Notes: generated from the sequence alone by a model not told the origin. 64,000 nt of DNA from Candidatus Levybacteria bacterium RIFCSPHIGHO2_01_FULL_36_15b (GCA_001782045.1 MFNK01000003.1:101905-165904), one strand, 5' to 3'. Shown: positions 1,029-45,839, counted from the first letter of the stretch. Translations and numbers: made by a program.

Positions 1029-1672
1029 AGCTCCAAAAATAAATTTTCTAATCCAAGGCGCAAGTTTACATTAGATTGTTTTATTTCCTTATAATATTGG
1101 TTTAAAACCTCAATCATTTTTTTATACTCCCCTGTTTCTTTCCCAGCTACCATTTTTTCTCTTATAAAAACTATAAACTTTTCTAAAAAGACTAGAGCAT
1201 CGTTTTTTTCTTTAGAAAAATCTTGTGCAAGTTTTAGCCTAAAACCTACATCGTTCATCCTTAAATTCTCAAGTATTTCAGAATAGTTTTTTTCATCGTC
1301 TTTTGTAATTTCTACTCCCCTATCCAGCTCTACTAATTTTGCTCTGGAGTTAATTGTTGGAAGAAAAGAGTTTTCAGAAGCCAGAATAAAAATATAAGTA
1401 GAAAGGGGCGGCTCTTCCAAAATTTTTAGAAATGCATTTTGAGCCTCTGTTGTTGCACCCAAAAATGCCTCTACTACTACTATTTTTTTGTCTCCTTTTA
1501 TGGGCTTTAAAAAAATTTTTGAAGACAAGTTTTTTACATCCGCAATGCCTAATGCTTTTTCGGTTTCCAGAGTATAAATATCAAAATCCGTAACCTTTTC
1601 TTTTTTCGCAAAATCTAAAACGTATTCTTTTGCCTTACCTTTGTCTTTGGAAATTATCAAAAAACTTTGCAT
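1025..1672 (-). CDS. holB: DNA polymerase III delta-prime-like clamp-loader subunit, short form
   Basis: Motif NAFLKILEEPP (the conserved LKxLEEPP box of HolB/DnaX clamp-loader subunits); only 215 aa, no Walker A seen. Confidence 0.6.
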   Translation of the reverse strand: MQSFLIISKDKGKAKEYVLDFAKKEKVTDFDIYTLETEKALGIADVKNLSSKIFLKPIKGDKKIVVVEAFLGATTEAQNAFLKILEEPPLSTYIFILASENSFLPTINSRAKLVELDRGVEITKDDEKNYSEILENLRMNDVGFRLKLAQDFSKEKNDALVFLEKFIVFIREKMVAGKETGEYKKMIEVLNQYYKEIKQSNVNLRLGLENLFLEL

Positions 1673-3477
1673 TACTTAAAATGGGCGATTATCACAGTTC
1701 TGTCGTCAGTATAACTTTCTAAGGTGGAGCCTTTTGTAGATGGGAATTCTCCTATTTTATCAGGATCAACTTCTTCCACATATCTAAACGCTTCTTCCCA
1801 AGATTCTATTGTGGGCTTGTCTGCAATTTTAAAATAACCATCGGAAAATACTTCAAGAAGTCCAACGTCTTTCAGGTCATAAGTAAAAGTTCTCACAAAT
1901 TGTTCCGGGACTTTCCTTCCATCCATTGCTCCAAAGCCTAATTCTTCTTGAGGATTATTCTGCAGTCTTGCTACCTGATTGTTTAATACATCAACTATCT
2001 CTTCTCTACCCTGTTTTAAAAGTTCGTCGCGTTCAATATCTGGATTTTCGGATTTGATTCTTTCAATGGTTTCTTTTCTTTTTTTAGAATTAATATTGTC
2101 TACCTCTTTAGAATCTTGGTGTACAGCCAATCTGTTGATTCTAAAACTTACATCCCCAACTTGTGTAATTACTATTTTATCTTCAATAATTTTTGCTGCT
2201 ACGAACGAGGAAGTAGGCCGTGCTTCTGGAGAGTTTTCAATAGAAGAGAAATAGCCGTCAGACGTAAAAGACCTTTCCATATATCGGCTTACAAAATCTA
2301 CTAATTCTTGCCCTGTCAAGTTCTTAGCTTCGGCGCTAGTAAGTGCTTCTGAGACAAGCTTTGCCGCATATTGTCCCCCCGACTCCTGTCCAAATGATAA
2401 GTTTCCTTTTGGCGTAGCACCATCTATAACAGCAATCAAATAATCTTTTGCAAGCCACATGTCCTCATTCTTAGATGGATCGTTTTTTGCTTTTCCTTTC
2501 GAAAGAGCTTCAACGTTAAATTTTTCAAATTCCCTTTTTTCTATATCACCTCTTTCCCCCAAATTCGAAATTCTTTCAGAGGCTCTTTTATTCAATTTAG
2601 CAAGCTGTTCGCTATCCAGGGTTTTATATTTTTCTTCTCTTTTTTCTAACCTCTCATTTATCCACCTGAACCACTCTTCCCCAAATTTTTCTCTTCCGTA
2701 TAAGGCCAGCGCCGAGGCTCCACTTGGGCTAGGTGAAAAAGCCCACCATAGTATTGCATGTTCGATATCCTCTTTTGTGTCAGGTATAAACTTAATATTT
2801 ATTTCTCTATCCGTTGCCCGCGATCTGATTTGATCTGCCGAAAGATTTGTCTCTGCAAAAAATATCATGCTTGGATTATTTGCTGCCTTGTTATATATAA
2901 TTCCTGAGGCCTTAATATCTGTCAGTTCATTAGTTTCAATTCCAGCCTCTTCCGTCAGTTCCCTTTTTACTGTAGCAAAGGGATCCCAATTGTCCTCTCC
3001 TCTTAAATCAGTTGAAAAATTTGGTTGACCACCTGGTACGCTTAACGCTCCTGGTTTTGTTGCCGCATCTAAGCCGCGTTGCGCGACAATCAACTGTCCA
3101 TCAGCTGTCTTAACTAATACATTAGTCCCTAAAACTCTTGGGGCATACTCTGCGTATCTTGCTCTTAAGTCTTTGTTTTGCATGGCTATATGATCTTTAT
3201 ATGAAGAAGAGGCGAGCTCTATATTTAATTTACCGTCGACCACGTTTACGCCTTTTAAGGATAATTGTGGTTCGGCTTTCAGTGGTGTTTTGCCTTCCGA
3301 AACCCTTTTGCTATTTGTTTCTTCCCAAATACTTTCAGTTTCCTCTATTAATTCTTTAGGTTTGGTTGTATTGAGACTTAATCTGGCTGAAATATCCCCT
3401 TCACCAAATTTGCCTGATGCAAGAATATCAAAGTAAGGATTTGAAATCTCTATTTCTCCGCTTTCAACAGCTTCCAT
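1672..3477 (-). CDS. NUDIX hydrolase / PP2C-type Ser-Thr phosphatase fusion protein (601 aa)
   Basis: Nudix box GEDNWDPFATVKRELTEEAGI (Gx5Ex7REuxEExGu) near residue 160. C-terminal third has PPM-like motifs AVIDGATPKG, VGDVSFR, FSDGY and terminal DDRTVIIAHF (resembles PP2C DDITVIVV ending). Confidence 0.6.
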   Translation of the reverse strand: MEAVESGEIEISNPYFDILASGKFGEGDISARLSLNTTKPKELIEETESIWEETNSKRVSEGKTPLKAEPQLSLKGVNVVDGKLNIELASSSYKDHIAMQNKDLRARYAEYAPRVLGTNVLVKTADGQLIVAQRGLDAATKPGALSVPGGQPNFSTDLRGEDNWDPFATVKRELTEEAGIETNELTDIKASGIIYNKAANNPSMIFFAETNLSADQIRSRATDREINIKFIPDTKEDIEHAILWWAFSPSPSGASALALYGREKFGEEWFRWINERLEKREEKYKTLDSEQLAKLNKRASERISNLGERGDIEKREFEKFNVEALSKGKAKNDPSKNEDMWLAKDYLIAVIDGATPKGNLSFGQESGGQYAAKLVSEALTSAEAKNLTGQELVDFVSRYMERSFTSDGYFSSIENSPEARPTSSFVAAKIIEDKIVITQVGDVSFRINRLAVHQDSKEVDNINSKKRKETIERIKSENPDIERDELLKQGREEIVDVLNNQVARLQNNPQEELGFGAMDGRKVPEQFVRTFTYDLKDVGLLEVFSDGYFKIADKPTIESWEEAFRYVEEVDPDKIGEFPSTKGSTLESYTDDRTVIIAHFK

Positions 3478-3481
3478 AATG

Positions 3482-3511
3482 TTGACATTATATCGTAAAT
3501 TCCCCTACTAT
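3482..3511 (+). promoter_or_regulatory. candidate sigma70-like promoter for pilB (TTGACA-18-TACTAT), would give a leaderless or near-leaderless transcript
   Basis: TTGACA at 3482-3487, TACTAT at 3506-3511, ATG at 3519. Confidence 0.25.
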
Positions 3512-3518
3512 TATAGTA

Positions 3519-5270
3519 ATGCCCGATGTTCAAGCAGTACCTGCTGATTTAACACAAGACGTTAATACATTTACTTCGCAATCTCTTGCTGATGTTTTAT
3601 TTGCCCAAAAGTTAATTTCTCAAACTCAATACGACGATATTAAGGTAAAAAGCGCAAGCAAGGGTGTTTCGGAAGACACCATGATTGAATCCATGGAGAT
3701 TGTGCCCGAGGATAAACTTTATCAGGCAAAAGCGCTAATTTTGGGCATCCCTTATGTTGATATTGAAAACGCTTCTTTTTCGCCGGAAGCTTTAGGAAAA
3801 GTGCCAAGAGCTGTAGCAGAGAGGTTTAGCTTAATTCCCTTTGCATATGACGATAAAGATAAAACATTATCTGTTGCTATGGCAAACCCGGTAGACTTGG
3901 AAGCTGCAACTTTTGTAAGAGAAAAAACAGACCTACCTATTAAGACTTTTGCAGCAACGCCAACAGACGTAGCGCGCGCAATTGGCCAGCAGTATAGACA
4001 GGAATTGGTTGGAGAGGTAGGAGAAGCGATAAAAGAAACCCAAAATCTGACTGCAATAAAGACAATCGACTCGGAACAAATAGCGCAAATTATAAAAGAA
4101 GCGCCAATTGCAAAAATCGTATCGACAATTTTAGAGTATGCGGTAACCAGTAGGGCTTCCGATATCCATATAGAGCCGCAGGAAGACAGAGTTAGAGTAA
4201 GGTACAGAATAGACGGAATTTTGTATGACAGACTTTCTTTACCAAAAGCGGTACAGGAAGCGGTAATATCAAGAATTAAAATTTTGTCTGAGATGAAAAT
4301 AGACGAACATAGAAGTCCACAAGACGGAAGATTTAATTTTAAAGTAGAAGACAAAGAGGTAGATCTTAGAATTAGCGTTTTGCCTACTACTTTTGGCGAA
4401 AAAATCGTAATGAGACTACTTCGAAAAAGCGGAGGAATTCCAACGCTTGAGGAATTAGGTGTTTCAGGGCCAACTAAAAAAACGCTTGAGAATGCAATAC
4501 TAAGACCACACGGAATAATTATTGTTTGCGGACCTACAGGAAGCGGAAAAACTACCACTTTATACTCTGTTTTGTCAAAGCTTAATACGCCAAAAGTTAA
4601 TATTTCAACACTTGAGGATCCTGTTGAATATCAAATTGCAGGAATTAACCAGGTTCAGGTAAATCCTGGAGTTGGCCTTACTTTTGCCGAAGGACTAAGG
4701 TCTTTTTTAAGACAAGACCCAAATATTATATTGGTAGGAGAAATTAGAGATCAGGAAACAACAGAACTTGCTATTCAGGCTGCACTAACAGGCCATTTGG
4801 TATTTTCTACTCTTCATACTTCAAGCGCTGCAGGTGCGTTGCCTAGGCTTTTAGATTTAAAAGCAGAAACCTTTTTACTTGCGTCCACTATGAATGCGGT
4901 ATTGGCGCAAAGAATTGTTAGAAAAGTATGTCAAACCTGCAAAACTGAATACGACCCCCCAGCCGAAATGGTTGAAGAAATGAAAACTGTTTTAGGGAAG
5001 TATTTTCCAAAGGAAAAAACTGCTAAGCTATATAAAGGTAAGGGTTGTGACGAATGCGGAGGAACCGGGTATGTCGGAAGAATCGGAATATTTGAAGCAG
5101 TAAATATAACCGAGAAAATTGGAGGTCTTATTTTGCAGCATGCAGATAGCGGAACAATTGAAAAAGAAGCAATTGAAGAAGGAATGATTACAATGAAACA
5201 AGATGGATATCTTAAGGTATTACAGGGATTAACAACAATAGAAGAGGTGTTAAGAGTAGCACAGGAATAA
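3519..5270 (+). CDS. pilB: type IV pilus assembly ATPase PilB (GspE family)
   Basis: Walker A VCGPTGSGKTTTLYS; GspE N-terminal domain; C-terminal tetracysteine CQTC...CDEC; followed by pilT and pilC. Confidence 0.9.
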   Translation: MPDVQAVPADLTQDVNTFTSQSLADVLFAQKLISQTQYDDIKVKSASKGVSEDTMIESMEIVPEDKLYQAKALILGIPYVDIENASFSPEALGKVPRAVAERFSLIPFAYDDKDKTLSVAMANPVDLEAATFVREKTDLPIKTFAATPTDVARAIGQQYRQELVGEVGEAIKETQNLTAIKTIDSEQIAQIIKEAPIAKIVSTILEYAVTSRASDIHIEPQEDRVRVRYRIDGILYDRLSLPKAVQEAVISRIKILSEMKIDEHRSPQDGRFNFKVEDKEVDLRISVLPTTFGEKIVMRLLRKSGGIPTLEELGVSGPTKKTLENAILRPHGIIIVCGPTGSGKTTTLYSVLSKLNTPKVNISTLEDPVEYQIAGINQVQVNPGVGLTFAEGLRSFLRQDPNIILVGEIRDQETTELAIQAALTGHLVFSTLHTSSAAGALPRLLDLKAETFLLASTMNAVLAQRIVRKVCQTCKTEYDPPAEMVEEMKTVLGKYFPKEKTAKLYKGKGCDECGGTGYVGRIGIFEAVNITEKIGGLILQHADSGTIEKEAIEEGMITMKQDGYLKVLQGLTTIEEVLRVAQE

Positions 5271-5271
5271 T

Positions 5272-6339
5272 ATGGAATTAGGACAGCTTTTAGATCAGAC
5301 AATTAAAAACAAGGCGTCGGACTTGCATCTTCTTGCAGGAATCCCGCCTACTATTAGAATTGACGGAGTTTTAAGGCCGCTTCAAAATTATCCGGCGCTT
5401 ACAAAAGAACAAATAGAAGAAATGGCATTCTCGGTACTTAAGCCCGAGCAAAAAGAACTTTTAATTCACAATAAAGAACTTGATTTTTCATTTGGTTTTG
5501 GAGGCGGGGCTTATGGAGATTTAGGAAGATTTAGAGCAAATCTTTATTATCAAAGAGGCGTTTTGGCCGGTGCATTTAGATTTTTGGAGCCTACTATTAG
5601 AACGCTTGAAGAGCTTAAAATTCCAAAAACTGCACATACTTTCGCAAATCTAAAACAAGGATTTGTTTTGGTAACGGGTCCAACAGGACACGGAAAATCT
5701 ACTACTTTAGCAGCCATAATTAACGAAATAAATGTAAATAAAGCAGCTCACATACTTACAATTGAGGATCCTATTGAATATGTTTATCCCAAGGGTAAAA
5801 GCATTATTTCTCAGCGTGAAATGGAAATTGATACTCTTTCATGGAATTTATCTCTTCGAAGCGCCTTGCGTGAAGATCCGGATGTCGTACTGGTTGGAGA
5901 AATGAGAGATTCGGAAACCATGGCAGCTGCATTAACAATTGCAGAAACAGGCCATTTGGTATTCTCTACCCTTCATACTAATTCTGCTGCACAATCAATA
6001 GATAGAATCATAGATACTTTCCCTGCTACCCAGCAAACCCAGATAAAGGTTCAGCTTGCTGCAACATTAAAAGGCATTATTTCACAAAGATTAATCCCTA
6101 TGATAGATGGAGGACGAGTTCCGGCTGTTGAGATTTTAATTGGAAATAATGCGGTGGCATCCAATATTAGAGAAGGAAAAACCCACTTGATAGATTCAAT
6201 TATTCAGACTTCGCAGCAGCAAGGAATGGTAACCCTTGAGTCTTCCCTTGCTTCTTTGGTTTTATCGGGTGCAATAAGCTTGGAAACTGCAAAATCTTAT
6301 GCTCTGCGGCCGGAAGAGCTTTTGAGACAGACTGGTTAA
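5272..6339 (+). CDS. pilT: twitching motility / pilus retraction ATPase PilT
   Basis: Walker A VTGPTGHGKSTTLAA; shorter PilT-type lacking GspE N-domain; AIRNLIREGK-like motif IREGKTHLI. Confidence 0.9.
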   Translation: MELGQLLDQTIKNKASDLHLLAGIPPTIRIDGVLRPLQNYPALTKEQIEEMAFSVLKPEQKELLIHNKELDFSFGFGGGAYGDLGRFRANLYYQRGVLAGAFRFLEPTIRTLEELKIPKTAHTFANLKQGFVLVTGPTGHGKSTTLAAIINEINVNKAAHILTIEDPIEYVYPKGKSIISQREMEIDTLSWNLSLRSALREDPDVVLVGEMRDSETMAAALTIAETGHLVFSTLHTNSAAQSIDRIIDTFPATQQTQIKVQLAATLKGIISQRLIPMIDGGRVPAVEILIGNNAVASNIREGKTHLIDSIIQTSQQQGMVTLESSLASLVLSGAISLETAKSYALRPEELLRQTG

Positions 6340-6468
6340 TTATGAGTCCCGTTAGAGACCGCTTAAGATGAAAAAATTAATTATAGAGTTCAAGAATTCA
6401 ATAAACCGCTTTAATTTAAGAAAGGAGATTTACGCAAGCGTTTTGAAACGCTCGCTGTTTCTAACGGG

Positions 6469-7671
6469 ATGAGATTGCGATATAAAGCTGCAACAAAAGA
6501 TGGCAAAGTTACACAGGGGTTACTCGAAGCAAAAGATATAACATCAGCCGCTTCCTATCTTCGGGGAAAAGAACTTCTTCCAATTTCCATAACTGAAGTT
6601 GAAAACAGAATTACAAATTACATCCCCTTTTTAAATCGAGTAAAAACTCAAGATTTAATATTATTTACAAGACAAATGTCGTCTATGTTATCCAGCGGCC
6701 TTACACTTCTTCGTGCCCTTGAGATTTTAAAAGAACAAATACAAAATGCTGCAATGACGGAAGTTGTTAATTCTATAATAAATGACGTTTCAGAGGGAAG
6801 AACTTTTTCTCAAGCAATGGAAAAACATTCAAGGGTTTTTACTCCTATTTACGTTTCTATAATTCAAGCAGGAGAAAATTCAGGTTTGCTTGATAAGGTT
6901 TTATCGCGCTTGGCAGATAATTTGGAAAAGCAGGCAAAATTAAAATCTACTATTAAAGGCGCCTTAATGTATCCTGTTATAGTTATACTTTTAATGGTTG
7001 TAGTTATGGTAGTAATGTTAATTTTTGTTATCCCGCAGTTAACAACTCTTTATGCAAATTTAAATATTGAACTTCCGCTTCCAACACAAATACTTTTGAC
7101 AACGTCTAAACTGTTTGCAATTTTTTGGCCGGTAATCTTAGTTATAGTAATAGTATGTTTTGTAGGATATCGTAAGTGGGTAGCGACAGCGGGGGGAAGA
7201 CTAATAGTAGATAATATAATTTTAAAACTTCCAATTTTTGGCGAACTTATTAGAAAAACTATATTGGCAGAATTTGCAAGAACCTTCGGGCTTTTGGTCG
7301 GAACCGGTACCTTGGTGGTTGAAGCTTTAAACGAAACAGCTAATATTGCAGGAAATGTTCATTACAAAAATGCAATTGTTGCGGTTGGTAATCAGGTTGA
7401 AAAAGGAGTTAGCGTTGGTACATCTATGGCCTATTCCCCCCTATTTCCGCCTTTACTTGTGCAATTGGTAAAAATTGGAGAACAAACCGGAAAAATGGAT
7501 GAAAACTTATCTAAAGCATCTGAATATTTTGAAAGAGAGGTAGACCAGACAGTTAAAACCCTAACTACCGCAATGGAGCCTTTTATAATGATAGTGTTGG
7601 GAATAGGAGTTGCGTTTTTAATAATTTCGGTTATTACGCCGATATATAGCCTTATTTCCAGTATTCAATAA
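6469..7671 (+). CDS. pilC: type IV pilus platform protein PilC (GspF family)
   Basis: 400 aa, three TM segments, duplicated GspF domains, N-term MRLRYKAATKDGKV typical of PilC. Confidence 0.9.
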   Translation: MRLRYKAATKDGKVTQGLLEAKDITSAASYLRGKELLPISITEVENRITNYIPFLNRVKTQDLILFTRQMSSMLSSGLTLLRALEILKEQIQNAAMTEVVNSIINDVSEGRTFSQAMEKHSRVFTPIYVSIIQAGENSGLLDKVLSRLADNLEKQAKLKSTIKGALMYPVIVILLMVVVMVVMLIFVIPQLTTLYANLNIELPLPTQILLTTSKLFAIFWPVILVIVIVCFVGYRKWVATAGGRLIVDNIILKLPIFGELIRKTILAEFARTFGLLVGTGTLVVEALNETANIAGNVHYKNAIVAVGNQVEKGVSVGTSMAYSPLFPPLLVQLVKIGEQTGKMDENLSKASEYFEREVDQTVKTLTTAMEPFIMIVLGIGVAFLIISVITPIYSLISSIQ

Positions 7672-7685
7672 GTACATATTGGCTA

Positions 7686-7715
7686 TTGACAAGCAATTTT
7701 GTATATGATTATGAT
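7686..7715 (+). promoter_or_regulatory. candidate promoter for major pilin gene (TTGACA-18-TATGAT)
   Basis: TTGACA 7686-7691, TATGAT 7710-7715, ATG at 7726 only ~5 nt after predicted TSS. Confidence 0.3.
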
Positions 7716-7725
7716 TAAAACATAC

Positions 7726-8286
7726 ATGAGAAAACTGCTCAATGTTTTTAAAGGAACAAAAGGTTTTACTCTCATCGAACTTTTAGTCGTCATCGGAATT
7801 TTAGGAATTTTGGCAGCAGCATTAATTGCAACTATTGATCCCTTCGAGCAGCTTAAAAAAGGGCGAGATACTACTACAAGAAACACTACTCTTGAATATT
7901 TAAATGCTCTTACTCGATATTATGCAACTCACGCAAAATTTCCTTGGGATAATGCTGTCGCAAATTGCAATGCTCCCACAACAGCAGTCCTTCTTTCAAC
8001 CATGAAAGATAATTGTACGGACGCATTAGAGGACGAAGGTGAGCTTAAGGTTGGATTTGGGGCAGCTGTAGACAGTTCCGGAGTCGATGATTTAATTAAA
8101 ATAAAAACAAGCGCTGCGGGTTCAGCGAATGTAACTCTCTGTTTCAGCCCAACAGCAAAATCTATAAAATCAGAAGATGCAACTAAATATGATAATAGTT
8201 GCTCAGGAGTAACTCCCCCAGGTTGTGCTACTTCAGCATTAAGATTAGCTGCTGCAGACGGGACTTGTTGGCAAGAATTTAAATAA
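7726..8286 (+). CDS. type IV major pilin candidate (class III signal peptide, Cys-rich C-terminal domain)
   Basis: MRKLLNVFKGTKG|FTLIELLVVIGILGILAA: prepilin peptidase site G|F with Glu+5. Track ORF begins at TTG 7699 but ATG 7726 gives the canonical short basic leader. First gene after pilC; 8 Cys in C-terminal half. Confidence 0.8.
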   Translation: MRKLLNVFKGTKGFTLIELLVVIGILGILAAALIATIDPFEQLKKGRDTTTRNTTLEYLNALTRYYATHAKFPWDNAVANCNAPTTAVLLSTMKDNCTDALEDEGELKVGFGAAVDSSGVDDLIKIKTSAAGSANVTLCFSPTAKSIKSEDATKYDNSCSGVTPPGCATSALRLAAADGTCWQEFK

Positions 8287-8332
8287 ACCTCTTTACTTGA
8301 GTTTAAACTAATCCTTTGTTATTCTTCTTATA

Positions 8333-9118
8333 GTGTATTTATTTGCAGTAGCCCTTTTTATTATTGGATTGTTTATTGGTTCTTTTTTAGGCGTTTTGAT
8401 AGATAGACTTCCCAAGGGTAAATCTGTTTTAAAAGGAAGGTCTAAATGCGATTTTTGTAAGAAGGAATTAGCTTGGTACGAGTTAATTCCGGTTTTATCC
8501 TTTGTAATTCAAAATGGAAAATGCAGAAGTTGCCATAAAAAACTTTCATTATTCTACCTAACTATTGAGCTCTCAACGGGATTTTTATTCGCAGTAACGT
8601 ATCTATTATTAATTCATAATTCAGAATTCATAATTCAGAATTTGCTTTTCTATTTGCTTATCACATCAAGCTTGATTGTTGTGTTCTTTACGGATTTAAA
8701 ATACGGAATAATTCCCAATAAAATTATTTTCCCATCTGTCTTGGTTACGCTTTTGTGGCTCTTATTTAGCCAACAGCCAACAGCCATAAACCATCTGCTT
8801 TCTGCAATTGGTGCTTCTTTATTTTTAACTCTAATTTCATATATTTACTATTTAATTAGAAAAAAAGAAAGCATAGGAGGCGGAGATATTAAGTTTGCGT
8901 TTTTAATGGGACTTTTGCTTGGTTTTCCAAATATTATTCTTGCTTTTTATATAGCTTTCTTGACAGGCGCAGGATACTCTATCATACTAATTTTATGGGC
9001 AAGATTAAAGCTAAAAGATTCAATTCCATTCGGCCCATTTTTAGTATTAGGAACTTTTGCTTCTCTTTATTTCGGAAGAGAAATCTTATTCTTAATACTC
9101 CCCTACCTAGGCCTTTAG
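8333..9118 (+). CDS. pilD: prepilin peptidase / N-methyltransferase PilD (A24 family)
   Basis: N-terminal CxxC...CxxC zinc motif (CDFCKKEL...CRSCHKK), 6-7 TM, GGGDIKF catalytic-region motif. Confidence 0.9.
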   Translation: MYLFAVALFIIGLFIGSFLGVLIDRLPKGKSVLKGRSKCDFCKKELAWYELIPVLSFVIQNGKCRSCHKKLSLFYLTIELSTGFLFAVTYLLLIHNSEFIIQNLLFYLLITSSLIVVFFTDLKYGIIPNKIIFPSVLVTLLWLLFSQQPTAINHLLSAIGASLFLTLISYIYYLIRKKESIGGGDIKFAFLMGLLLGFPNIILAFYIAFLTGAGYSIILILWARLKLKDSIPFGPFLVLGTFASLYFGREILFLILPYLGL

Positions 9119-9927
9119 AGGGTTTTACTTTAGTTGAGCTTATTATTGTTACTGCAATTTTAGGTATTTTAGCAGGACTTGTTTTATTTACACTTAACCC
9201 ATTTACGCAGCTTGCAAAAGCAAGAGATGCACAAAGGCAGAACGACATAAAGCAGCTTCAGTCTGCTCTTGATACTTACTACAACGATAATAATTACTAT
9301 CCGTCGACTTCAAACCCTTGGTTAACCAGTAACGATTTGGGGCCGCAATATATTAAAAAAATTCCAGTGGACCCTGAAGGAAAGGTATACGTATATCTGG
9401 AAGATCCTTCTAGCCGTCCACAGTGGAATGCATTATTTACAAGACTTAGTGCGCTTCCTGCAACTACCATTTCTTGCCCTCTTGTGCAACTTGAAGCTGA
9501 AGTTGGCGATTGCCTGCCGGAAAACTATGAAAGCGGATACAACTATTGCGTTGTTTCAGGGGATGTAAAATGCAGCGATATTGCCTCGCTTTCTCTCCCT
9601 GATTTAGGAATTCCTACGTCTGCTCCAACACCTCCTGCAGGTGCAACAGATACACCTACATCAGCTCCTACGGCGCCTCCAGGTGCAACAAATACGCCTA
9701 CACCCACCATTACTCCAACTCCTACACCTGCCGGGCCCACGAATAGTCCCACGCCTACTCCAACCCCTGTTATCTGCAGTAATTATTACGCCTATACAAC
9801 GGGTCCAAATTGCAACGATTTAGGTCCAGATCCGGGTAATCAATGCACTATTCACGGAGGGTCATTTATATGCTATAAAAGTAGAACAGGGTCTATTTGC
9901 GATACTCAATTTCCCTGCGCGCAGTAA
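8995..9927 (+). CDS. large pilin-like protein with Pro/Thr-rich linker and Cys-rich C-terminal module; start codon uncertain
   Basis: LEG|FTLVELIIVTAILGILAGL prepilin motif at 9118-9180. Only in-frame ATG is 41 codons upstream (8995), inside pilD; no ATG/GTG/TTG between. PT repeats PTSAPTPPAGATDTPTSAPTAPPGATNTPTPTITPTPTPAGPTNSPTPTPTP, then 8-Cys tail. Confidence 0.65.
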   Translation: MGKIKAKRFNSIRPIFSIRNFCFSLFRKRNLILNTPLPRPLEGFTLVELIIVTAILGILAGLVLFTLNPFTQLAKARDAQRQNDIKQLQSALDTYYNDNNYYPSTSNPWLTSNDLGPQYIKKIPVDPEGKVYVYLEDPSSRPQWNALFTRLSALPATTISCPLVQLEAEVGDCLPENYESGYNYCVVSGDVKCSDIASLSLPDLGIPTSAPTPPAGATDTPTSAPTAPPGATNTPTPTITPTPTPAGPTNSPTPTPTPVICSNYYAYTTGPNCNDLGPDPGNQCTIHGGSFICYKSRTGSICDTQFPCAQ

Positions 9928-9929
9928 GT

Positions 9930-10439
9930 ATGCTTAAGATAGCAAATATAAAAGGTTTTACATTAATAGAACTACTAATAGTAGTTGGTATTTTAGGTAT
10001 TTTGTCGGCGGCGATTCTTGCTACGCTAGATCCTTTTTCACAATTCCAAAAAGGAAATGATTCAAGAAGAAAGTCCGATTTGTCTCAAATTCAGAAAGCA
10101 ATTGAAACTTACTATCAGGATAAAGGTAGCTATCCTGGCTCTTCAGGCAGCCCGAACTATTGCCTGCGGGAATTCGCTTCTCCTTTTACAACCTATTGCG
10201 GAGACTCAAGCTTTACTCCATATATGAATGTGGTACCAAAAGATTCTAATTCCGCGAATAGATATGTTTATTATGCCTCTTCAGATGGACAGTCTTACTG
10301 GATTTATGCTAGTCTGGATAGAGGAGGCAAAGACCCGCAGGCTTGCAACTTAGGTAATCAGTGTGCGAACGTTCCGAGTGGGGCCTCATGCGGGGGAACT
10401 TGTAATTACGGAGTAGCTAGTACTAATGCGCAACCATGA
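9930..10439 (+). CDS. GspG-like pseudopilin / minor pilin
   Basis: MLKIANIKG|FTLIELLIVVGILGILSAA, ATG at 9930 immediately after previous stop (track start 9897 overlaps upstream gene); C-terminal Cys pairs. Confidence 0.75.
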   Translation: MLKIANIKGFTLIELLIVVGILGILSAAILATLDPFSQFQKGNDSRRKSDLSQIQKAIETYYQDKGSYPGSSGSPNYCLREFASPFTTYCGDSSFTPYMNVVPKDSNSANRYVYYASSDGQSYWIYASLDRGGKDPQACNLGNQCANVPSGASCGGTCNYGVASTNAQP

Positions 10440-10870
10440 ATAAGATTATAAAAAAAGTTAAGGGCTTTACGCTTATAGAGCTTTTAATTGTTATTGCAAT
10501 AATTGGAGTTTTATCTGCACTACTCATGGCAAACTTTATAGGCGTAAGACAGCGAGCAAGAGATTCCCAGAGAAAAGCAGATTTGCGCCAAATACAATCG
10601 GCTTTAGAGCTTTATAGGTCTGATCTTTCAAGTTATCCAACTACGGCAAGCTTTCCTGCTTGTAACTTATCCTTAATATCCGGAGGTACAACTTATATGC
10701 AGAAAGTTCCTTGTGATCCCACTAATACATCTCCTTTTGTGTATAGTTACTCATCGGGAGGTACAACATATACGCTATATGCTTGTCTTGAAAACGGCTC
10801 TGACTCTCAAAAAGACGCTTCCAAGCAATCTTCGTGCACTTTAGCTTCGTTCACAGTGACGAACCCATGA
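10436..10870 (+). CDS. GspG-like pseudopilin / minor pilin
   Basis: MNKIIKKVKG|FTLIELLIVIAIIGVLSALL; ...RDSQRKADLRQIQSALELY resembles GspG/PilE conserved helix; ATGA start-stop overlap with upstream gene. Confidence 0.75.
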   Translation: MNKIIKKVKGFTLIELLIVIAIIGVLSALLMANFIGVRQRARDSQRKADLRQIQSALELYRSDLSSYPTTASFPACNLSLISGGTTYMQKVPCDPTNTSPFVYSYSSGGTTYTLYACLENGSDSQKDASKQSSCTLASFTVTNP

Positions 10871-11385
10871 AATTAATCAAAAGAAAATCTGCGGGATTTA
10901 CCTTAATCGAGCTAATTGTTGCTTTTACTATTATTTCTATTCTTTCCGTAATTAGCTTTGCTGCTTATGTAAGCTTTAGCAGAAATCAGGCAGTAGGTAA
11001 CGAGGCTAATCAATTAGTATCTGTACTTAATCTAGCAAAATCAAAGGTGCAGTCACAAGTAAAACCATCATCTTGCACAACAAGTCTTGACCCGTTAGTT
11101 AATCGTACTTTAACTGAATATCGTGTTGTAATAGAACAAGCAAATAATCAATATAAATTAGTTGCGGTTTGCGGAGGGTCTCTTATTAATATTCCAATTG
11201 AAGGCAGCTCAAGCATCTATCACAAAATTCCTTCCCCAATTACAGTTGATGCTAATTACACAATAAGTTTTAACGTCTTATCAGGAGTAGTTAGTCCAAC
11301 TCCCACTACCATTACTTTGAATGGTGGATGGGTTCCAAGTATTGTAAAAACAGTAACAATAAATAGCGATGGTACTATTCAATAA
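10867..11385 (+). CDS. minor pilin (GspH/FimT-like)
   Basis: MKLIKRKSAG|FTLIELIVAFTIISIL; ATG at 10867 overlapping previous stop (ATGA). Confidence 0.7.
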   Translation: MKLIKRKSAGFTLIELIVAFTIISILSVISFAAYVSFSRNQAVGNEANQLVSVLNLAKSKVQSQVKPSSCTTSLDPLVNRTLTEYRVVIEQANNQYKLVAVCGGSLINIPIEGSSSIYHKIPSPITVDANYTISFNVLSGVVSPTPTTITLNGGWVPSIVKTVTINSDGTIQ

Positions 11386-11869
11386 ATTTATAAAAGAAAA
11401 TGGACAAGGATTAATAGAGGCTATGGTTGCATTGGGTGCTGCTGTTATTGTAATTTCAACAATTGCAGTTGCGGTTATCACAGCTGTTAATAATTCGGAC
11501 TTTTCTAAAAATCAAAATACCGCATCTGCCTACGCTCAGCAAGGTCTAGAAATTGTAAGAGATAAGGCAGAAAATAACTGGACAACTTTTTCTACATATA
11601 CAAGTACATATTGTCTTAATAAAGACGTAACGGACCTAGCCACAAGGCCGGATTCACAAGGGAACTGTGCTTTAATAGATAACGTATTTGTAAGAAAAAT
11701 AAATATTAGTCAGAATGATAGTAATTGTACAAACGGAACCGGAAGTAAGGTTAAATCCATGGTTTCTTGGTCTGACGGAAAATGCACGGACACTGTGAAT
11801 AATAAGTACTGTCATACAGTTCAGCTTGAATCATGCATGGCAAACATTAATAGCGTTCCATCATTATGA
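11369..11869 (+). CDS. atypical pilin-like protein (possible G|QGLIEA cleavage site)
   Basis: FIKENG|QGLIEAMVALGAAVIVISTIAV: hydrophobic helix with Glu at +5 if cleaved after NG; Cys-containing C-terminus. Confidence 0.45.
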   Translation: MVLFNKFIKENGQGLIEAMVALGAAVIVISTIAVAVITAVNNSDFSKNQNTASAYAQQGLEIVRDKAENNWTTFSTYTSTYCLNKDVTDLATRPDSQGNCALIDNVFVRKINISQNDSNCTNGTGSKVKSMVSWSDGKCTDTVNNKYCHTVQLESCMANINSVPSL

Positions 11870-12465
11870 AAAAGTTTTTAAATTCAAAAGGATATACATT
11901 GGTTGAGCTTTTGGCGGTAATTATAATTTTGGTTTCGGTTGGTGGCATAATTATAGCAATAGTAACTACTTCGCTTAGGGGCGGAAACAGGAGTATAAAT
12001 GTAAATGAGGTTAGACAAGAGGGAAATTTTGCTATTACACAAATGTCGCGGATGATAAAATACGCAAAAAGCTTTGATGGGGTAAGCGCGGATGGAAGCG
12101 CAAATTCATACACAACAAGTTGCTTACCAATTACAATTACTCCGACTCCTGCACCTGTTAAGTATAAATATTTAAAAATTACCTCATTTGAAGGTGGTGT
12201 TATTACTTTTTCTTGTAAAGACGGGGCTAGCGATATTACTAACCTTCTTTCTTCAAATAGCGCTAATTTAATAAATACCAGCAAAGTAAGCCTGGTTGAA
12301 GACAGTTGCTACTTTAGTTGCAACCAGGATAATTCAATTCTTTCCCCTATAATTGATATACATTTTGATCTGACTCCCTACACTTCGGTAACTCCAGTTT
12401 TTGTAGAAAATACGCTTACTATCCCCTTTCAAACGTCTGTAGTTTTTAGAAATATTGGTAATTAA
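11866..12465 (+). CDS. minor pilin
   Basis: MKKFLNSKG|YTLVELLAVIIILV with Glu+5; 4-nt overlap with previous gene. Confidence 0.65.
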   Translation: MKKFLNSKGYTLVELLAVIIILVSVGGIIIAIVTTSLRGGNRSINVNEVRQEGNFAITQMSRMIKYAKSFDGVSADGSANSYTTSCLPITITPTPAPVKYKYLKITSFEGGVITFSCKDGASDITNLLSSNSANLINTSKVSLVEDSCYFSCNQDNSILSPIIDIHFDLTPYTSVTPVFVENTLTIPFQTSVVFRNIGN

Positions 12466-12516
12466 AACGATTGACAAATCTTAAATTTTACTGCTACTCT
12501 ATACTTAGGCAATTTT

Positions 12517-13344
12517 ATGATTAAAACAAAATTAGGAGGCCAGAAAGGCCAAGCTCTTTTAATTGTAATTTTGGTTATGGTAGTAGCCTTAACTATAACC
12601 TTGTCTGTAATTTCGCGTGCCGTTGTTAATCTAAGAACCACTCAGGATCAGGAAAAATCGCAACGTGCCTTAGCTGCTGCAGAAGCAGGCATTGAACAAA
12701 CAATTAAAAACTCGTTTGTTCCAATTGCTCAGGATCAAAATTTAAGCAATAATTCGTCTTTTACAACTTCTGTTACACAACTGGCTGGAAATGCTCCTTT
12801 TTTAGTTGAAGGAGGTAATTTAATTACACAAAATGACGGAGCATATATCTGGTTATCCACATATAACGAAGTTGGTAATTGGACTACCCGGTGGCCTACG
12901 AGCGGCAGCGCAAACCTTGATATTTACTGGGGAGATTCTAGTGGAGATAACAATAATGCAGCCTTGGAAATTGCTGTAATTTCCGGAAGTAGTGTTGCAA
13001 ATGCTGTAATAACAAGATATGTATATGATCCATCTCCAACAAGAAGGTCTTCAAACAATTTTTCTGCTCCCGTTAACTCCCCTATAGCTATTCAGGATAA
13101 AAGTTTTACTTACAGAGCAACAATTTCAATTACAGACGGAATGGTGGTAAGAGTTGTGCCTCTTTATAAATCAGCTTATATCGCAGCAGCTCCCGCTTCG
13201 GGTGCGCCTGCAATTGCTGCTAATCAGGGCCGACTTATTACTGCTGTTGGAAAATCAGACGAAACCGCGCGAAGGGTAACCGTTTTTCAGGGTTATCCCG
13301 AACTTCCTGCCGACTTCTTCCCATACTCGTTACTTGTCCCATAA
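12517..13344 (+). CDS. PilX-N-like minor pilin / pilus tip protein
   Basis: N-terminus GGQKGQALLIVILVMVVALTITLSVISRA resembles PilX_N domain (GxALIVVL...); no Glu+5; 275 aa Ser/Thr/Asn-rich. Confidence 0.5.
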   Translation: MIKTKLGGQKGQALLIVILVMVVALTITLSVISRAVVNLRTTQDQEKSQRALAAAEAGIEQTIKNSFVPIAQDQNLSNNSSFTTSVTQLAGNAPFLVEGGNLITQNDGAYIWLSTYNEVGNWTTRWPTSGSANLDIYWGDSSGDNNNAALEIAVISGSSVANAVITRYVYDPSPTRRSSNNFSAPVNSPIAIQDKSFTYRATISITDGMVVRVVPLYKSAYIAAAPASGAPAIAANQGRLITAVGKSDETARRVTVFQGYPELPADFFPYSLLVP

Positions 13345-14379
13345 ATGAATAAAAAAAATTTTGGTTTAGATATAGGAGCTACGTCTTTAAAGCTTGTTTG
13401 GCTTGAGCATGATCCAAGGGGTTTTATTTTAAAAGCAGCATTAATTGCTCCTGTGCCGCCTAAAGGAATGTTATCTGAAGCACCTTTGGATGAGGAAGAA
13501 ATGGCTCAAGCTTTGCGAAAAGCGGTTGAGGCAGCAGGGGTTCCTACAAAAAGAGTTAATATTGCGCTCCCTGAAAATCAGGTGTACACAAAAGTTTTGG
13601 AAATGCCTACCTTATCGGATAAAGAAATAGCAGCAGCCATTTATTGGGAGGCAGAACAATATATTCCCGTTCCACTTTCTAACATAAAATTAGTTTGGGA
13701 CGTCTTAAAAAGACCGGCAACTAATAATCCAACTGATAAAATGCAGGTTTTAATGGTAGGCGCCCCTACTCTTCTTGTAAATAAATACCAAAAAATTCTA
13801 TCTATGGCAGGACTTGAAATAAATGCGATGGAAACAGAAATACTTGCAACAATAAGATCAATAGTGCCTAATGAAAGTTTTCCAACAAGCCTTATTGTAA
13901 ATATAGGCGCAATAAGCACCTCAATTGCGATTGTTAAAAAAGGAATAATAATTTTTACATATTCTATGTCTATAGGAGGAGCAGCAATAAATAGAGCTAT
14001 AGCAACCGATTTTAATCTTACTCCTCAGCAAGCGGAAGAATATAAAAGAGTTTATGGGGTTTCCGGAAAAAGCTTGGGAGGCAAAATTGGAAAATCAACA
14101 GAACCAATACTTAGCACAATATTAACCGAGATTAAAAAGTCAATCGCTTTTTATGAGCAAAAATATAAAGACGGGGATAAAATAAGACAAATTATTCTTT
14201 CAGGGGGAACAGCAAAGCTTCCCGGAATCGAGATCTTTTTTGCTCAAAACGCAGGCATTGAAACCGCAATTGCAAACCCATGGAAATCACTCATTTCCCA
14301 GCAAATTCCTAAAGAAGTCCTTCAAAACGCCTCAGATTATCCTATCGCAGTAGGACTAGCGATGCGAGAGTATGAATAA
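13345..14379 (+). CDS. pilM: type IV pilus assembly protein PilM (actin-like ATPase fold)
   Basis: MNKKNFGLDIGATSLKLV N-terminus typical of PilM/FtsA fold, 344 aa, followed by pilN/pilO-like bitopic proteins. Confidence 0.85.
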   Translation: MNKKNFGLDIGATSLKLVWLEHDPRGFILKAALIAPVPPKGMLSEAPLDEEEMAQALRKAVEAAGVPTKRVNIALPENQVYTKVLEMPTLSDKEIAAAIYWEAEQYIPVPLSNIKLVWDVLKRPATNNPTDKMQVLMVGAPTLLVNKYQKILSMAGLEINAMETEILATIRSIVPNESFPTSLIVNIGAISTSIAIVKKGIIIFTYSMSIGGAAINRAIATDFNLTPQQAEEYKRVYGVSGKSLGGKIGKSTEPILSTILTEIKKSIAFYEQKYKDGDKIRQIILSGGTAKLPGIEIFFAQNAGIETAIANPWKSLISQQIPKEVLQNASDYPIAVGLAMREYE

Positions 14380-14908
14380 CAGTATAAATTTAGTATCAAG
14401 CCGCAATGACGCAATTGAAAGAGAGCGAAAAGTTTTTCTTTCCCTGCGCATTATTGCAATCGTTTTGCTTTCTACTATTGCTGTTGGGTCTATACTTGCT
14501 TTTATAATAACAACTACAATTCCGCTTTCAAAAATAAAAGATGAACAAACGCAAACTTTAGCAAGCATTTCTACTTCATCCAAAAAACTATCTAGTTATT
14601 ATTTAATAAGAGATAAACTTACAAATATTAATTCTTTAACTACTACAAGAGCAGATTACATAAAACCAATTGAGTTAATTTTTTCAAAATTACCCGAAGG
14701 GGTTAGCATTGATAGTTTGGATATAGAAAGAAACTTAATAGAAATAGAAATTTCAGGCTCTTCCCTTCTTCCCCTAGATGAGGCCATAAAATCGCTAGTT
14801 GCCCTAGGAACGGAAGGAAAAATAATTAAGTCCGTCAAGTTAAAATCTTTAAACTTAAACGCTCAAGCAGCAAGATACTCGGTTACCTTTGCAGCAGAAA
14901 AAATATAA
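14372..14908 (+). CDS. pilN: PilN-like bitopic inner-membrane pilus alignment protein
   Basis: 178 aa, single N-proximal TM (LRIIAIVLLSTIAVGSILAFI), overlaps pilM stop by 8 nt, position after pilM. Confidence 0.55.
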   Translation: MNNSINLVSSRNDAIERERKVFLSLRIIAIVLLSTIAVGSILAFIITTTIPLSKIKDEQTQTLASISTSSKKLSSYYLIRDKLTNINSLTTTRADYIKPIELIFSKLPEGVSIDSLDIERNLIEIEISGSSLLPLDEAIKSLVALGTEGKIIKSVKLKSLNLNAQAARYSVTFAAEKI

Positions 14909-15663
14909 TGGATTTTAATAAAGACATAAAAGATGTTAGGTTTAACGTAAATCTTTCTACTGTCTTAATTATTTATCGGCAGTATAAGAATTATTTTTTA
15001 CCTTTTGCAATAATAGTTGCGTCGTTAGTTGTGTTATTTATTATTTTAATTCCACAGGTTCAGGGAGTACTAACTGCAAAAGAAGAGGAAAAGCGGGAGA
15101 CGCAAAAATTGACGGAATTAAAAAATAGTTACAATAATTTATCTGCAATGAATGAAGCGACTCTTGGACAAAATGTAGATTCGCTCGAAAGAGCTCTACC
15201 TAGTACGAAAGATTTTGCGGGGATAATTAATTCAATATCGTCAAATGCCGTAAAAGCGGGTGTATCTGTTGGAAATTTTGAATTTTCTGTAGGCGATTTA
15301 AGTAAATCGCAAGAAGGAGTAGCATTTCCTACAATTGCTATATCATTAAACGTTTCCGGCTCTCCTAAATCGACACTTGAGTTTATAAAAAACCTTTATG
15401 AATCTGTGCCAATTGCCGAAATAACAAGCATGAAGCTATCGGGAGAAAGCACTTCTTTAAAAGTACAGTTTTATTATAAAGCTAATTCTCAGATTAGTCT
15501 AAAAAATAATACAGCAATAACTCAATTTAATAAAAATGAAACAGCGTTAATAGCAAAGATAAATAAATGGGCTGAAAGCGTAATAGCGGGATCACTTCCA
15601 ATTGCAATAGGTTCGGAGGGCGAAGTGGCGACGGAATCATCAAGAGCTAATCCTTTTCAATAA
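14908..15663 (+). CDS. pilO: PilO-like bitopic membrane protein
   Basis: 251 aa, one TM (FLPFAIIVASLVVLFIILIP) followed by coiled-coil; start overlaps pilN stop (ATAATGG); positional call. Confidence 0.45.
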   Translation: MDFNKDIKDVRFNVNLSTVLIIYRQYKNYFLPFAIIVASLVVLFIILIPQVQGVLTAKEEEKRETQKLTELKNSYNNLSAMNEATLGQNVDSLERALPSTKDFAGIINSISSNAVKAGVSVGNFEFSVGDLSKSQEGVAFPTIAISLNVSGSPKSTLEFIKNLYESVPIAEITSMKLSGESTSLKVQFYYKANSQISLKNNTAITQFNKNETALIAKINKWAESVIAGSLPIAIGSEGEVATESSRANPFQ

Positions 15664-31682: not shown

Positions 31683-32330
31683 TTAACCGGTTTGTTGTGC
31701 AACTACTCGCTCTCCAGACAAGGTAAAACTTGTACCCTGGGATTTTGCAAGGCTCCAAAAGTCTTTCTTAGATTTCTTTCCTGCTAGGGCTGACATCCAG
31801 TTTGCAGAACTCTCAATTCTGACCCTAGCTGCTTGAATTGTAGATAACATCCACTCTACAAAATTTAAGTGATACTTACCCGGTTTAATATTGTCCTGAA
31901 TAGTTTCTGTTGCTACTTGTTTAAAAGAAATCTCAAGTTCCTTAGATTTTTCGGTAATTTTTTTAAGCTCAATTTGAATTTCCGTTAGCCTTTGTTTAAT
32001 TTCCTGATTATCGGCATTTCTTCTAATAGTTTCTGCATGAAGAATTTTATCTACATATTTTATATCCGGATCGCCTTCTGCAGCTCTTTCTTTTTTTTCT
32101 TTCTTAGTAAAACTTATTTCTTCCCCCTCGTTAAGATCTCCGGCTAGTTTTTCAGCCCTAGAAGCCTGGTTTTGAGCTTCTTGAGCTTGTCCCAAGGCCT
32201 GCTTCATAAAAACTTTCCATTCTTCATTAAGTTCACTTTTAACAGTTTTTGAAGCAGATTGAATCAACTCGGCTCCAATTTCGTCGAGGTTTTTCTCTCT
32301 AAATGTTTTTAAGGGATTTTTACTTGCCAT
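31683..32330 (-). CDS. hypothetical coiled-coil protein (215 aa)
   Basis: Heptad-rich, Lys/Glu-rich, no enzymatic motif. Confidence 0.5.
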   Translation of the reverse strand: MASKNPLKTFREKNLDEIGAELIQSASKTVKSELNEEWKVFMKQALGQAQEAQNQASRAEKLAGDLNEGEEISFTKKEKKERAAEGDPDIKYVDKILHAETIRRNADNQEIKQRLTEIQIELKKITEKSKELEISFKQVATETIQDNIKPGKYHLNFVEWMLSTIQAARVRIESSANWMSALAGKKSKKDFWSLAKSQGTSFTLSGERVVAQQTG

Positions 32331-42092: not shown

Positions 42093-42929
42093 TTATATTA
42101 TTTCAAATAGAAGTTTAAATACTTCGTAAAAACCCCAAAGCGCCAGTACTATAAATGCCAGTCCTCCGATAATTAAAACAACAGGATGACGTACTACTTG
42201 GACCGTCTTTGAGGGCCAAATAAACAATCCAATATTTAAAATCATATGCCCAAGCATTACTCCTAATGCAAATCCAAATAAATTAACTACGTCAAAAAGA
42301 GGAATATAACCTGCAAAATCATCTAAGCCCAAAATAAACGGAATGGTAAAAGAAAAAACCGCCAAGTTTGTAAAAGAAAGTTTTTTTGCACGTGTTAAAT
42401 TAAGGTGAGGAACAAAATATCTAAGAATAGGTCGGAATAACTTATTTACAAAATTTAATTGAGACTGAAGAAGATACACCGGCATTTTAATATCTATTAA
42501 GAAGCTTTTTCTTTGTTTAAGAAATTCTTCTAAGCTTTCCTGAGCCATTCTAAGAAGTACAATAGAGGCAACAAAAATCATAATCATCATTAGAAATGGA
42601 ATTTCTTTAAATACTACCCAAACGATTAAAACTGCAAACGTTCCGAATGCATTCCCTACAGCCGTTCCAAGCTCTATTGCAATTCTTTTTTGCCAACCGG
42701 GGTTTGTATGCATTAAATTGCCGATAAATATTGCAAAGTCTATTGCGGTTTTAAGATAAATAGCAATTCCGATAAGAATATCCCGTTTTCTAAAATCTAA
42801 AACTATTTTGTCAGTTAAGGGAAATGTATTTAAAATTAAAAGAAGTCCGTACAAAAGCGTTGAAAGGACAAAAAATGTAAGAATTGTTAATGCAACCGGG
42901 ATAACTTGACGAATAAAAACTTTTTTCAT
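42093..42929 (-). CDS. integral membrane protein (8 TM; TerC/DUF475-like?)
   Basis: 278 aa, highly hydrophobic; family assignment uncertain. Confidence 0.4.
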   Translation of the reverse strand: MKKVFIRQVIPVALTILTFFVLSTLLYGLLLILNTFPLTDKIVLDFRKRDILIGIAIYLKTAIDFAIFIGNLMHTNPGWQKRIAIELGTAVGNAFGTFAVLIVWVVFKEIPFLMMIMIFVASIVLLRMAQESLEEFLKQRKSFLIDIKMPVYLLQSQLNFVNKLFRPILRYFVPHLNLTRAKKLSFTNLAVFSFTIPFILGLDDFAGYIPLFDVVNLFGFALGVMLGHMILNIGLFIWPSKTVQVVRHPVVLIIGGLAFIVLALWGFYEVFKLLFEII

Positions 42930-45760: not shown

Positions 45761-45839
45761 CCTAGATTGTCACTTTACTCCATCATATACTATACCCTAT
45801 AGTTTGACTTTAATGTTTGCTTTTGTTAAACTTTCTCAC

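Follow-up and report, generated by a model that had tools for sequence, protein, structure and literature searches.

A probable secretin-less type IV pilus locus with eight pilin-like genes in a Candidatus Levybacteria genome

Introduction

Few surface machines are conserved throughout the Candidate Phyla Radiation (CPR, or Patescibacteria); type IV pili (T4P) belong to these few, and they are essential for episymbiosis in cultivated Saccharibacteria. Epibiotic growth of the saccharibacterium Southlakia requires the T4P genes but not comEC (PMC10633639), and two pili in Saccharibacteria mediate host binding and twitching (PMC11623550). Among the putative minor pilins of its locus in TM7x, PilX1 is the largest and shows the highest expression; it has a jelly-roll-like domain, and no PilD signal is predicted in it (PMC11623550). 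Within the Microgenomates, a closed genome contains a single-locus pilus set from which pilQ is absent, and its authors concluded that the envelope is not Gram-negative (PMC7143001). Here, we describe a pilus locus located at positions 3519-15663 of a 64,000-nucleotide stretch (hereafter, the window) of Candidatus Levybacteria bacterium RIFCSPHIGHO2_01_FULL_36_15b (MFNK01000003.1, 101905-165904), which very probably encodes a complete retractile T4P machine of the outer-membrane-less type in a Levybacteria (Microgenomates, CPR/Patescibacteria) host. Since no Levybacteria have been cultivated, a clean annotation of the locus has practical value.

Results

A complete set of assembly genes without a secretin

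The + strand between positions 3519 and 15663 carries an unbroken series of 15 intact open reading frames (ORFs) whose starts and stops overlap or nearly abut. Gene families were assigned through Pfam and NCBIfam profile searches, and catalytic motifs were read from the translations (Table 1). An earlier note on this DNA had proposed the order pilB-pilT-pilC-pilin-pilD, seven more pilin-like genes and pilM-pilN-pilO; all 15 ORFs were recovered in that order, the pilin gene next to pilC being designated pln1 and the seven others pln2 to pln8.

Table 1. Genes of the pilus locus, with positions counted from the first nucleotide of the window (aa, amino acids; arrow, processing site).
Gene	Position	Strand	Predicted product	Profile matches and features
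pilB	3519..5270	+	Extension ATPase, 583 aa	Pfam T2SSE 432 bits, 1.2e-129; MshEN 1.5e-15
pilT	5272..6339	+	Retraction ATPase, 355 aa	TIGR01420 PilT/PilU 443.7 bits, cut-off 319.1
pilC	6469..7671	+	Platform protein, 400 aa	Two Pfam T2SSF domains, 2.4e-58
pln1	7699..8286	+	Candidate major pilin	N_methyl 32.5 bits, cut-off 21.2; six Cys
pilD	8333..9118	+	Prepilin peptidase / N-methyltransferase	A24_N_bact 2.2e-29; Peptidase_A24 3.4e-16
pln2	8995..9927	+	GspG-like pilin	T2SSG 7.9e-7; TIGR01710 4e-15, below cut-off
pln3	9897..10439	+	GspG-like pilin	N_methyl 29.7 bits; T2SSG 22.3 bits; site G↓FTLIEL
pln4	10436..10870	+	GspG-like pilin, 144 aa	N_methyl 34.6 bits; T2SSG 32.8 bits; TIGR01710 68 bits; site G↓FTLIEL
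pln5	10834..11385	+	Minor pilin, GspH/FimU position	N_methyl 35.4 bits; site G↓FTLIEL
pln6	11369..11869	+	GspI/PilV-like minor pilin, 166 aa	Conserved atypical site G↓Q(G/S/T)LIE; six conserved Cys
pln7	11866..12465	+	Minor pilin, GspJ/PilW position, 199 aa	N_methyl 18.4 bits, below 21.2; site G↓YTLVEL
pln8	12517..13344	+	PilX/GspK-position protein, 275 aa	G↓QALLIV without Glu5; conserved AAAEAG(I/V)E motif
pilM	13345..14379	+	Cytoplasmic actin-like protein, 344 aa	PilM_2 176 bits, 9.9e-52; TIGR01175 200 bits, cut-off 133
pilN-like	14372..14908	+	Bitopic PilN-like protein, 178 aa	Between pilM and pilO; INL motif; one transmembrane helix; periplasm-side domain
pilO	14908..15663	+	PilO, 251 aa	Pfam PilO PF04350 26.3 bits, cut-off 22

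The motifs of the assembly proteins are preserved. PilB comprises an N-terminal MshEN/GspE-N domain followed by Walker A (GPTGSGKT), Walker B and tetracysteine (CQTC...CDEC) motifs, and its NCBIfam scores with GspE (569 bits) and PilB (556 bits) both fall just under the equivalog cut-offs; those of PilC with the GspF and PilC equivalogs (317-352 bits, the highest being GspF with 352) are also below theirs. PilT contains the motif AVASNIRE, which resembles AIRNLIRE, and PilD retains the CxxC...CxxC arrangement together with the aspartate motifs FTDLKYG and GGGDIKF.

The ORF at 14372-14908 was assigned as PilN-like from its position, its topology, its invariant INL motif and the weak profile matches of its orthologs. 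PilN binds PilM through an INLLP motif, and residues I5, N6, L7 and R26 are invariant among eight PilN orthologs, the arginine preceding the transmembrane helix. Three of these eight match Pfam PilN weakly (best E 0.0046), and a PDB profile search with the family alignment returned nothing meaningful.

Pfam detected no secretin, PilP, ComEC or ComEA among the scanned ORFs of the window, which comprised most of those of at least 120 aa, a few that overlap other genes or tRNA genes being left out. In the window, as in the related locus L001, pilO is followed by trmD on the opposite strand. PilQ and PilP, which belong to diderm type IVa systems, are missing from the locus, the adjoining genes and the scanned ORFs, and likewise from the syntenic loci of relatives and the genes next to them, while PilB, PilC, PilD and PilT are all present. 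A PilM-PilN-PilO scaffold without PilP or PilQ, clustered with PilB, PilT, PilC, PilD and pilins, is the composition of a secretin-less T4P. The fit to a monoderm or CPR-type envelope that the earlier note suggested is supported by the CPR host and by a complete PilB/T/C/D/M/N/O set with, as the note also stated, no secretin or PilP in it. The missing PilP and PilQ are consistent with a single-membrane envelope, the envelope type being taken from the CPR literature (PMC7143001).

The pilin array and its candidate major subunit

A class III processing-site pattern, G↓(F/Y/Q)xLxE followed by a hydrophobic stretch, matched eight times in the six-frame translation of the window, compared with 0.13 +/- 0.38 matches in 200 shuffles. 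Seven of the matches lie inside real ORFs, all within 7762-11890 (+). This clustering is far above that of the shuffles, and the pilin array is therefore real and far beyond chance. A basic leader ending in Gly (short except in pln2), a hydrophobic helix of about 20 residues and Glu at position +5, the features of class III pilins, are combined in seven of the eight pilin-like proteins. The class III signals that the earlier note had attributed to every pilin-like gene thus hold for these seven but not for pln8, which lacks Glu5. N_methyl scores exceed the cut-off in pln1, pln3, pln4 and pln5 and fall just short of it in pln2 (21.0 against 21.2 bits) and below it in pln7, and the domain is absent from pln6. 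Pfam T2SSG is matched by pln2, pln3 and pln4, so that the GspG-like pilins number three and not two, as had been noted. The pilin described as carrying a Pro/Thr linker is pln2 and the atypical one with a G↓QGLIEA site is pln6, in whose family that site is conserved.

The processing site of pln1 reads G↓FTLIEL, with its Gly codon at 7762, and the true start of the gene is probably one of the ATGs at 7705-7726. Promoter-like and terminator-like sites of the locus show no enrichment over shuffles, and the only ones that stand out precede pilB and pln1. Of the sigma-70-like sites, the two best, at 7686-7715 (pln1) and 3482-3511 (pilB), end about 8-11 nt before the first possible starts; at such a distance, the 5' leaders would be very short or absent, or starts further downstream would be used (for pln1, ATG 7726). 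Rfam identified no RNA element within the pilus locus.

We consider pln1 the likeliest major pilin because it is the first pilin after pilC, has the best sigma-70-like site of the locus just upstream (11 of 12 matches), and varies highly among relatives, with 40-70% identity where their PilB, PilT and PilC proteins share 58-93%.

The same region differs among the loci of Levybacteria relatives. In L010, three tandem and closely similar pilin paralogs occupy the interval between pilC and pilD (11289-12825), where the window has the single pln1; pilin genes may thus have been amplified in the lineage, or be subject to antigenic variation. In L004 (11792-14981) and L003 (13936-15930), one or two large polytopic membrane proteins with TMEM260-like/PMT_2 (protein O-mannosyltransferase-like) domains are encoded between the major pilin gene and pilD; their domains suggest O-glycosylation of pilins. 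The window locus lacks inserts of this type, and a PMT_2 protein is encoded at 37928-39520 of the window. In L003, a 300-aa reverse-strand ORF with CxxC motifs, likewise missing from the window locus, is additionally inserted between pilC and the pilin gene.

A predicted pilin start codon inside pilD

The predicted pln2 product has a 42-aa leader, the site G↓FTLVEL (Gly codon at 9121) and a GspG-like pilin part, after which come a linker rich in Pro and Thr and a tail of 52 aa containing six cysteines. Upstream of the Gly codon, ATG, GTG and TTG codons are limited to a single ATG at 8995. This ATG is situated 124 nt inside pilD, in a different frame, and the Gly codon directly adjoins the stop codon of pilD (leader region 8995-9123). 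A canonical start closer to the Gly codon was sought and none was found; a rare ATC or ATT start could be used instead. Type IVa pilins usually have leaders of 5-6 residues.

A pilin start overlapping pilD is present in all 10 Levybacteria-type loci (L001, L003-L010 and L034; at 12493-12616 in L001), with overlaps of 115-181 nt and leaders of 32-66 aa. In six loci, the window included, the pilin after pilD has no alternative canonical start, and in five the Gly codon precedes the pilD stop. Two Woesebacteria loci show no overlap and leaders of 10-11 aa. Because it occurs in all 10 Levybacteria-type loci and not in the two from Woesebacteria, the long leader seems to be real and lineage-specific. 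We put forward, as a tentative and rather doubtful joint proposal, that the start inside pilD and the long leader exert a lineage-specific control on the processing of a GspG-like pilin or on its entry into the filament, and that the order of the locus reflects an arrangement shared by T4P and type II secretion systems (T2SS). Translational coupling of the leader to the peptidase gene could be part of such a control.

The pln2 gene itself is present only in a subset of the fetched loci, and its linker and tail vary or are missing among orthologs. When compared with 1.84 billion representative proteins, the tail had one true homolog, another pln2-type pilin (P0177), so it is not a widespread module. 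A second candidate, P0176, was discarded as an artefact, being a Cys-free repeat protein.

The last four pilin-like genes as a minor-pilin block

The remaining GspG-like genes, pln3 and pln4, precede a block of four. The likely start of pln3 is ATG 9930, which yields 169 aa, the length also obtained by public gene callers. The best conserved pilin is pln4, with 50-69% identity across the 10 Levybacteria-type loci and a nearly invariant N-terminal stretch of 60 aa.

From gene order and features taken together, we infer that pln5 to pln8 are the counterparts of FimU/GspH, PilV/GspI, PilW/GspJ and PilX/GspK, respectively. The likely start of pln5 is ATG 10867 (172 aa), and its N-terminus matches GspH and prepilin peptidase-dependent proteins weakly (E about 1e-6). 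Profiles of the pln5 and pln7 families match solved pilins in the PDB at their N-termini only (5e-11 and 1.8e-6, respectively), and in comparisons with the GspH/FimU and GspJ/PilW families only the N-terminal helices match (FimU 4ipu, E 0.38). Residues G9, T11 and E14 are invariant among 14 pln7 orthologs. By these N-termini, pln5 and pln7 are true pilins. The Gly and Glu of the processing site are invariant in the pln6 and pln7 families. For pln6, a pilin helix and a small sheet of 3-4 strands that resembles GspI structures support a GspI-like fold; a PDB profile search with the pln6 family alignment returned nothing meaningful.

The product of pln8 is distinct from the others. It lacks Glu5, has a helix of the PilX_N/GspK type and comes last in the minor-pilin block, as expected for GspK or PilX. 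The PilX_N resemblance proposed in the earlier note does not reach the cut-off in the window protein (17.3 bits) but is supported at the level of the family, where 10 of 11 orthologs match (best E 1e-5); the match of its N-terminus to GspK (2.9e-5) is likewise below the cut-off. Its globular domain is predicted to form a beta jelly roll and not a GspK-like fold. A Foldseek comparison of the model with the PDB gave no significant match, and a PDB profile search with the family alignment gave nothing meaningful. Within the block, the I-type assignment of pln6 was tested and holds, the K-type assignment of pln8 holds for position and N-terminus and not for fold, and the H- and J-type assignments of pln5 and pln7 are proposed from gene order and position. 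A modular tip or adhesin complex, as also raised in the earlier note, is in keeping with a conserved block of four final pilins with one GspI-like member and one Glu5-less, PilX_N-type member bearing a jelly roll, and we regard pln8 as a candidate tip or adhesin subunit.

Conservation and genomic setting

The 15 proteins were compared with the fetched loci by tblastn and blastp. Colinearity is complete in L001, for all 15 genes, and nearly so in L003-L010 and L034; identity to the window proteins is 58-93% for PilB, PilT and PilC and only 30-70% for the pilins. The pln5-pln6-pln7-pln8 block is kept, at least partly, out to Woesebacteria and Roizmanbacteria loci. Gene order and reading frames are maintained even though the pilins are at 30-70% identity, which indicates purifying selection, and the pattern as a whole fits a functional machine with fast-evolving exposed subunits. 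The close relatives are all Levybacteria or Patescibacteria metagenome-assembled genomes (MAGs). A GenBank hypothetical protein of Candidatus Levybacteria bacterium RIFCSPLOWO2_01_FULL_36 matches pln6 with 100% identity, and the PilC of another Rifle Levybacteria MAG, which carries the nearest locus, shares 87% identity with that of the window. Some third-party annotation (TPA) assemblies among the relatives are evidently mislabelled as Gammaproteobacteria.

The rest of the window, with about 35% GC, encodes aminoacyl-tRNA synthetases, PBP1, UvrA, UvrC, RecG and RNase III and looks like part of a small CPR-type genome. Rfam identified only 17 tRNAs in the window, and no rRNA or other family; these tRNA genes are distributed singly or in small groups over 31001-63103 (32 kb) among housekeeping genes. 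Directly upstream of pilB and divergent from it, 1672-3477 (-) encodes a 601-aa protein with weak, below-cut-off matches to NUDIX (N-terminal) and a PP2C-like phosphatase (C-terminal), an unusual pairing. Four ORFs have no Pfam match at E <= 0.01: 42093-42929 (-, 278 aa), 43244-44455 (-, 403 aa), 45741-46868 (+, 375 aa) and 63124-63864 (+, 246 aa). A small holin-superfamily-IV-like membrane protein (Phage_holin_4_2, 52652-53053, +) and a DUF5660 protein (31683-32330, -) are also found among the housekeeping genes, with no other phage genes seen near them.

Discussion

Proposed mechanism and function

By homology, PilD cleaves, and probably N-methylates, the class III leaders of the pilins, and PilB, on the PilC platform, polymerises the pilins out of the membrane. 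PilT depolymerises them, causing retraction, and PilM, PilN and PilO form the membrane alignment scaffold. The filament would consist mainly of pln1, its assembly being primed by the pln5-pln8 block, which would end up at the pilus tip with pln8 as the capping and possibly glycan-binding subunit. The GspG-like pln2 to pln4 may serve as linkers between tip and shaft or as alternative, low-abundance shaft subunits. By analogy with Saccharibacteria, such a pilus would act in attachment to a host cell or surface and in twitching motility, and it may also capture DNA for a com system encoded elsewhere.

Several points weigh against this interpretation. The pilus machine is known here from its genes alone, and the PilN ORF of the window has no significant Pfam or NCBIfam match of its own. 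The secretin search covers 64 kb of the genome, and a distant secretin or a second pilus locus is possible. Regarding the individual subunits, the most conserved pilin is pln4 and not the proposed major pilin pln1, and pln5 and pln7 are assigned to the GspH and GspJ types by gene order and N-terminal similarity only.

DNA uptake and protein secretion as alternatives

A pilus devoted mainly to DNA uptake, feeding ComEA/ComEC for nucleotide scavenging or transformation and not serving adhesion or motility, is an unlikely explanation, albeit one with some chance of being correct. In naturally competent bacteria, T4P cooperate with com systems. Conservation across CPR phyla is known for ComEC, ComFC and DprA (PMC10633639), and a Microgenomates genome encodes ComEC, ComEA and DprA (PMC7143001). 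However, the scanned ORFs of the window contain no com gene. PilB and PilC do match ComGA (259 bits) and ComGB (149 bits), both below cut-off, but the GspE and PilB scores of the former are far above that of ComGA, and the locus has PilT and PilM/N/O, which are absent from ComG operons. A ComG operon as such was rejected, as ComGA, ComGB and ComGC-GF are all below cut-off and weaker than the Pil and Gsp families and PilT and PilM/N/O are present. Moreover, comEC can be dispensed with in Southlakia while the pilus genes cannot (PMC10633639), and TM7x T4P-2 mutants transform normally (PMC11623550). DNA uptake and adhesion or motility are in any case compatible functions that do not exclude one another.

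It is very unlikely that the locus encodes a T2SS-like system, in which a short GspG-like pseudopilus, with GspH-I-J-K as its cap, would drive proteins across the wall. The top NCBIfam matches of PilB and PilC are GspE (569 bits) and GspF (352 bits), respectively, and three pilins match GspG, yet every Gsp equivalog score is below its cut-off. Likewise, positions 10436-15663 are colinear with gspG-H-I-J-K-L-M, assuming PilM plus PilN to be the equivalent of GspL and PilO that of GspM, in the order of pul/gsp operons; nevertheless, PilM is a separate protein and not a GspL fusion, with PilM_2 and TIGR01175 matches (the latter above cut-off). The locus includes a true PilT retraction ATPase that scores above its cut-off, which T2SS do not have, and a separate pilin with its own promoter-like site adjoins pilC. 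Membership in the T2SS was thus rejected, with GspC and GspD missing, PilT present, and PilM, PilN and PilO in place of GspL and GspM. Saccharibacterial genes of this kind have been called T2SS in literature cited by PMC10633639, whereas thick and thin T4P have been imaged in Saccharibacteria with homologous loci (PMC11623550). Finally, a decaying or silent remnant is barely conceivable, as nothing specific favours it beyond the promoter-like and terminator-like sites not being enriched over shuffles, while all 15 ORFs are intact with preserved catalytic motifs and gene order and frames have been kept in loci with pilin identities of only 30-70%.

Comparison with known systems

A retractile T4P of the outer-membrane-less type, the interpretation that we favour, has its closest described relatives in T4P-1 of Nanosynbacter lyticus TM7x and T4P1 of Southlakia epibionticum, with which the locus was compared through their published descriptions. 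As in those CPR hosts, a single locus encodes PilB, PilT, PilC, PilD, PilM, PilN and PilO and several pilins, with no PilQ listed (PMC11623550, PMC10633639); a small major pilin is accompanied by more elaborate minor pilins, some of them resembling T2SS pseudopilins; and a large PilX-type protein combines a beta jelly-roll domain with the lack of a canonical PilD signal. The pln8 protein matches the published description of TM7x PilX1. The present locus differs in its phylum (Levybacteria/Microgenomates), in having eight pilin-like genes instead of five, and in the pilin after pilD, whose 32-66-aa leader is encoded inside pilD in this lineage. Furthermore, pilM, pilN and pilO follow the minor pilins here, whereas pilM is upstream of pilB in the fetched Saccharibacteria-type loci.

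Within the same superphylum, the closed Microgenomates genome Ch65, from which pilQ is absent, also has a single locus with PilA, PilE/GspJ/PilW minor pilins, PilD, PilB, PilT, PilC and PilM; it belongs to a different Microgenomates lineage, and neither PilN and PilO nor a structural assignment of the minor pilins was reported for it (PMC7143001). The T4P of Gram-positive bacteria (Clostridium, Streptococcus sanguinis) share the secretin-less cluster of pilB/T/C/D, pilM/N/O and several pilins (see also PMC3244431), but they show no close sequence relationship, and the G-H-I-J-K order of the minor pilins and the reduced CPR genome distinguish the locus described here. The four consecutive genes pln5 to pln8, the second of which appears GspI-like, resemble FimU-PilV-PilW-PilX of Pseudomonas and GspH-I-J-K of T2SS (PMC7248040, PMC7541494; structures 3ci0 and 5bw0). 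The fourth protein, like GspK, has no Glu5 and a PilX_N/GspK-like N-terminal helix; unlike in these core minor pilins and pseudopilins, its globular domain is a predicted jelly roll instead of a GspK fold, and no PilY1 accompanies it. When the whole locus is set against the T2SS arrangement, its order reads pilB-(pilT)-pilC-(pilA)-pilD-G-G-G-H-I-J-K-pilM/N-pilO.

For studies of attachment in groundwater bacteria, the locus offers as targets a candidate major pilin, a GspI-like minor pilin, a jelly-roll PilX-type candidate adhesin and a modular pilin. In summary, its architecture and missing secretin have already been published for Microgenomates and studied experimentally in Saccharibacteria, and they leave the current understanding unchanged; to these known systems, the present locus adds a finer annotation of its minor pilins and a long-leader pilin that overlaps pilD.

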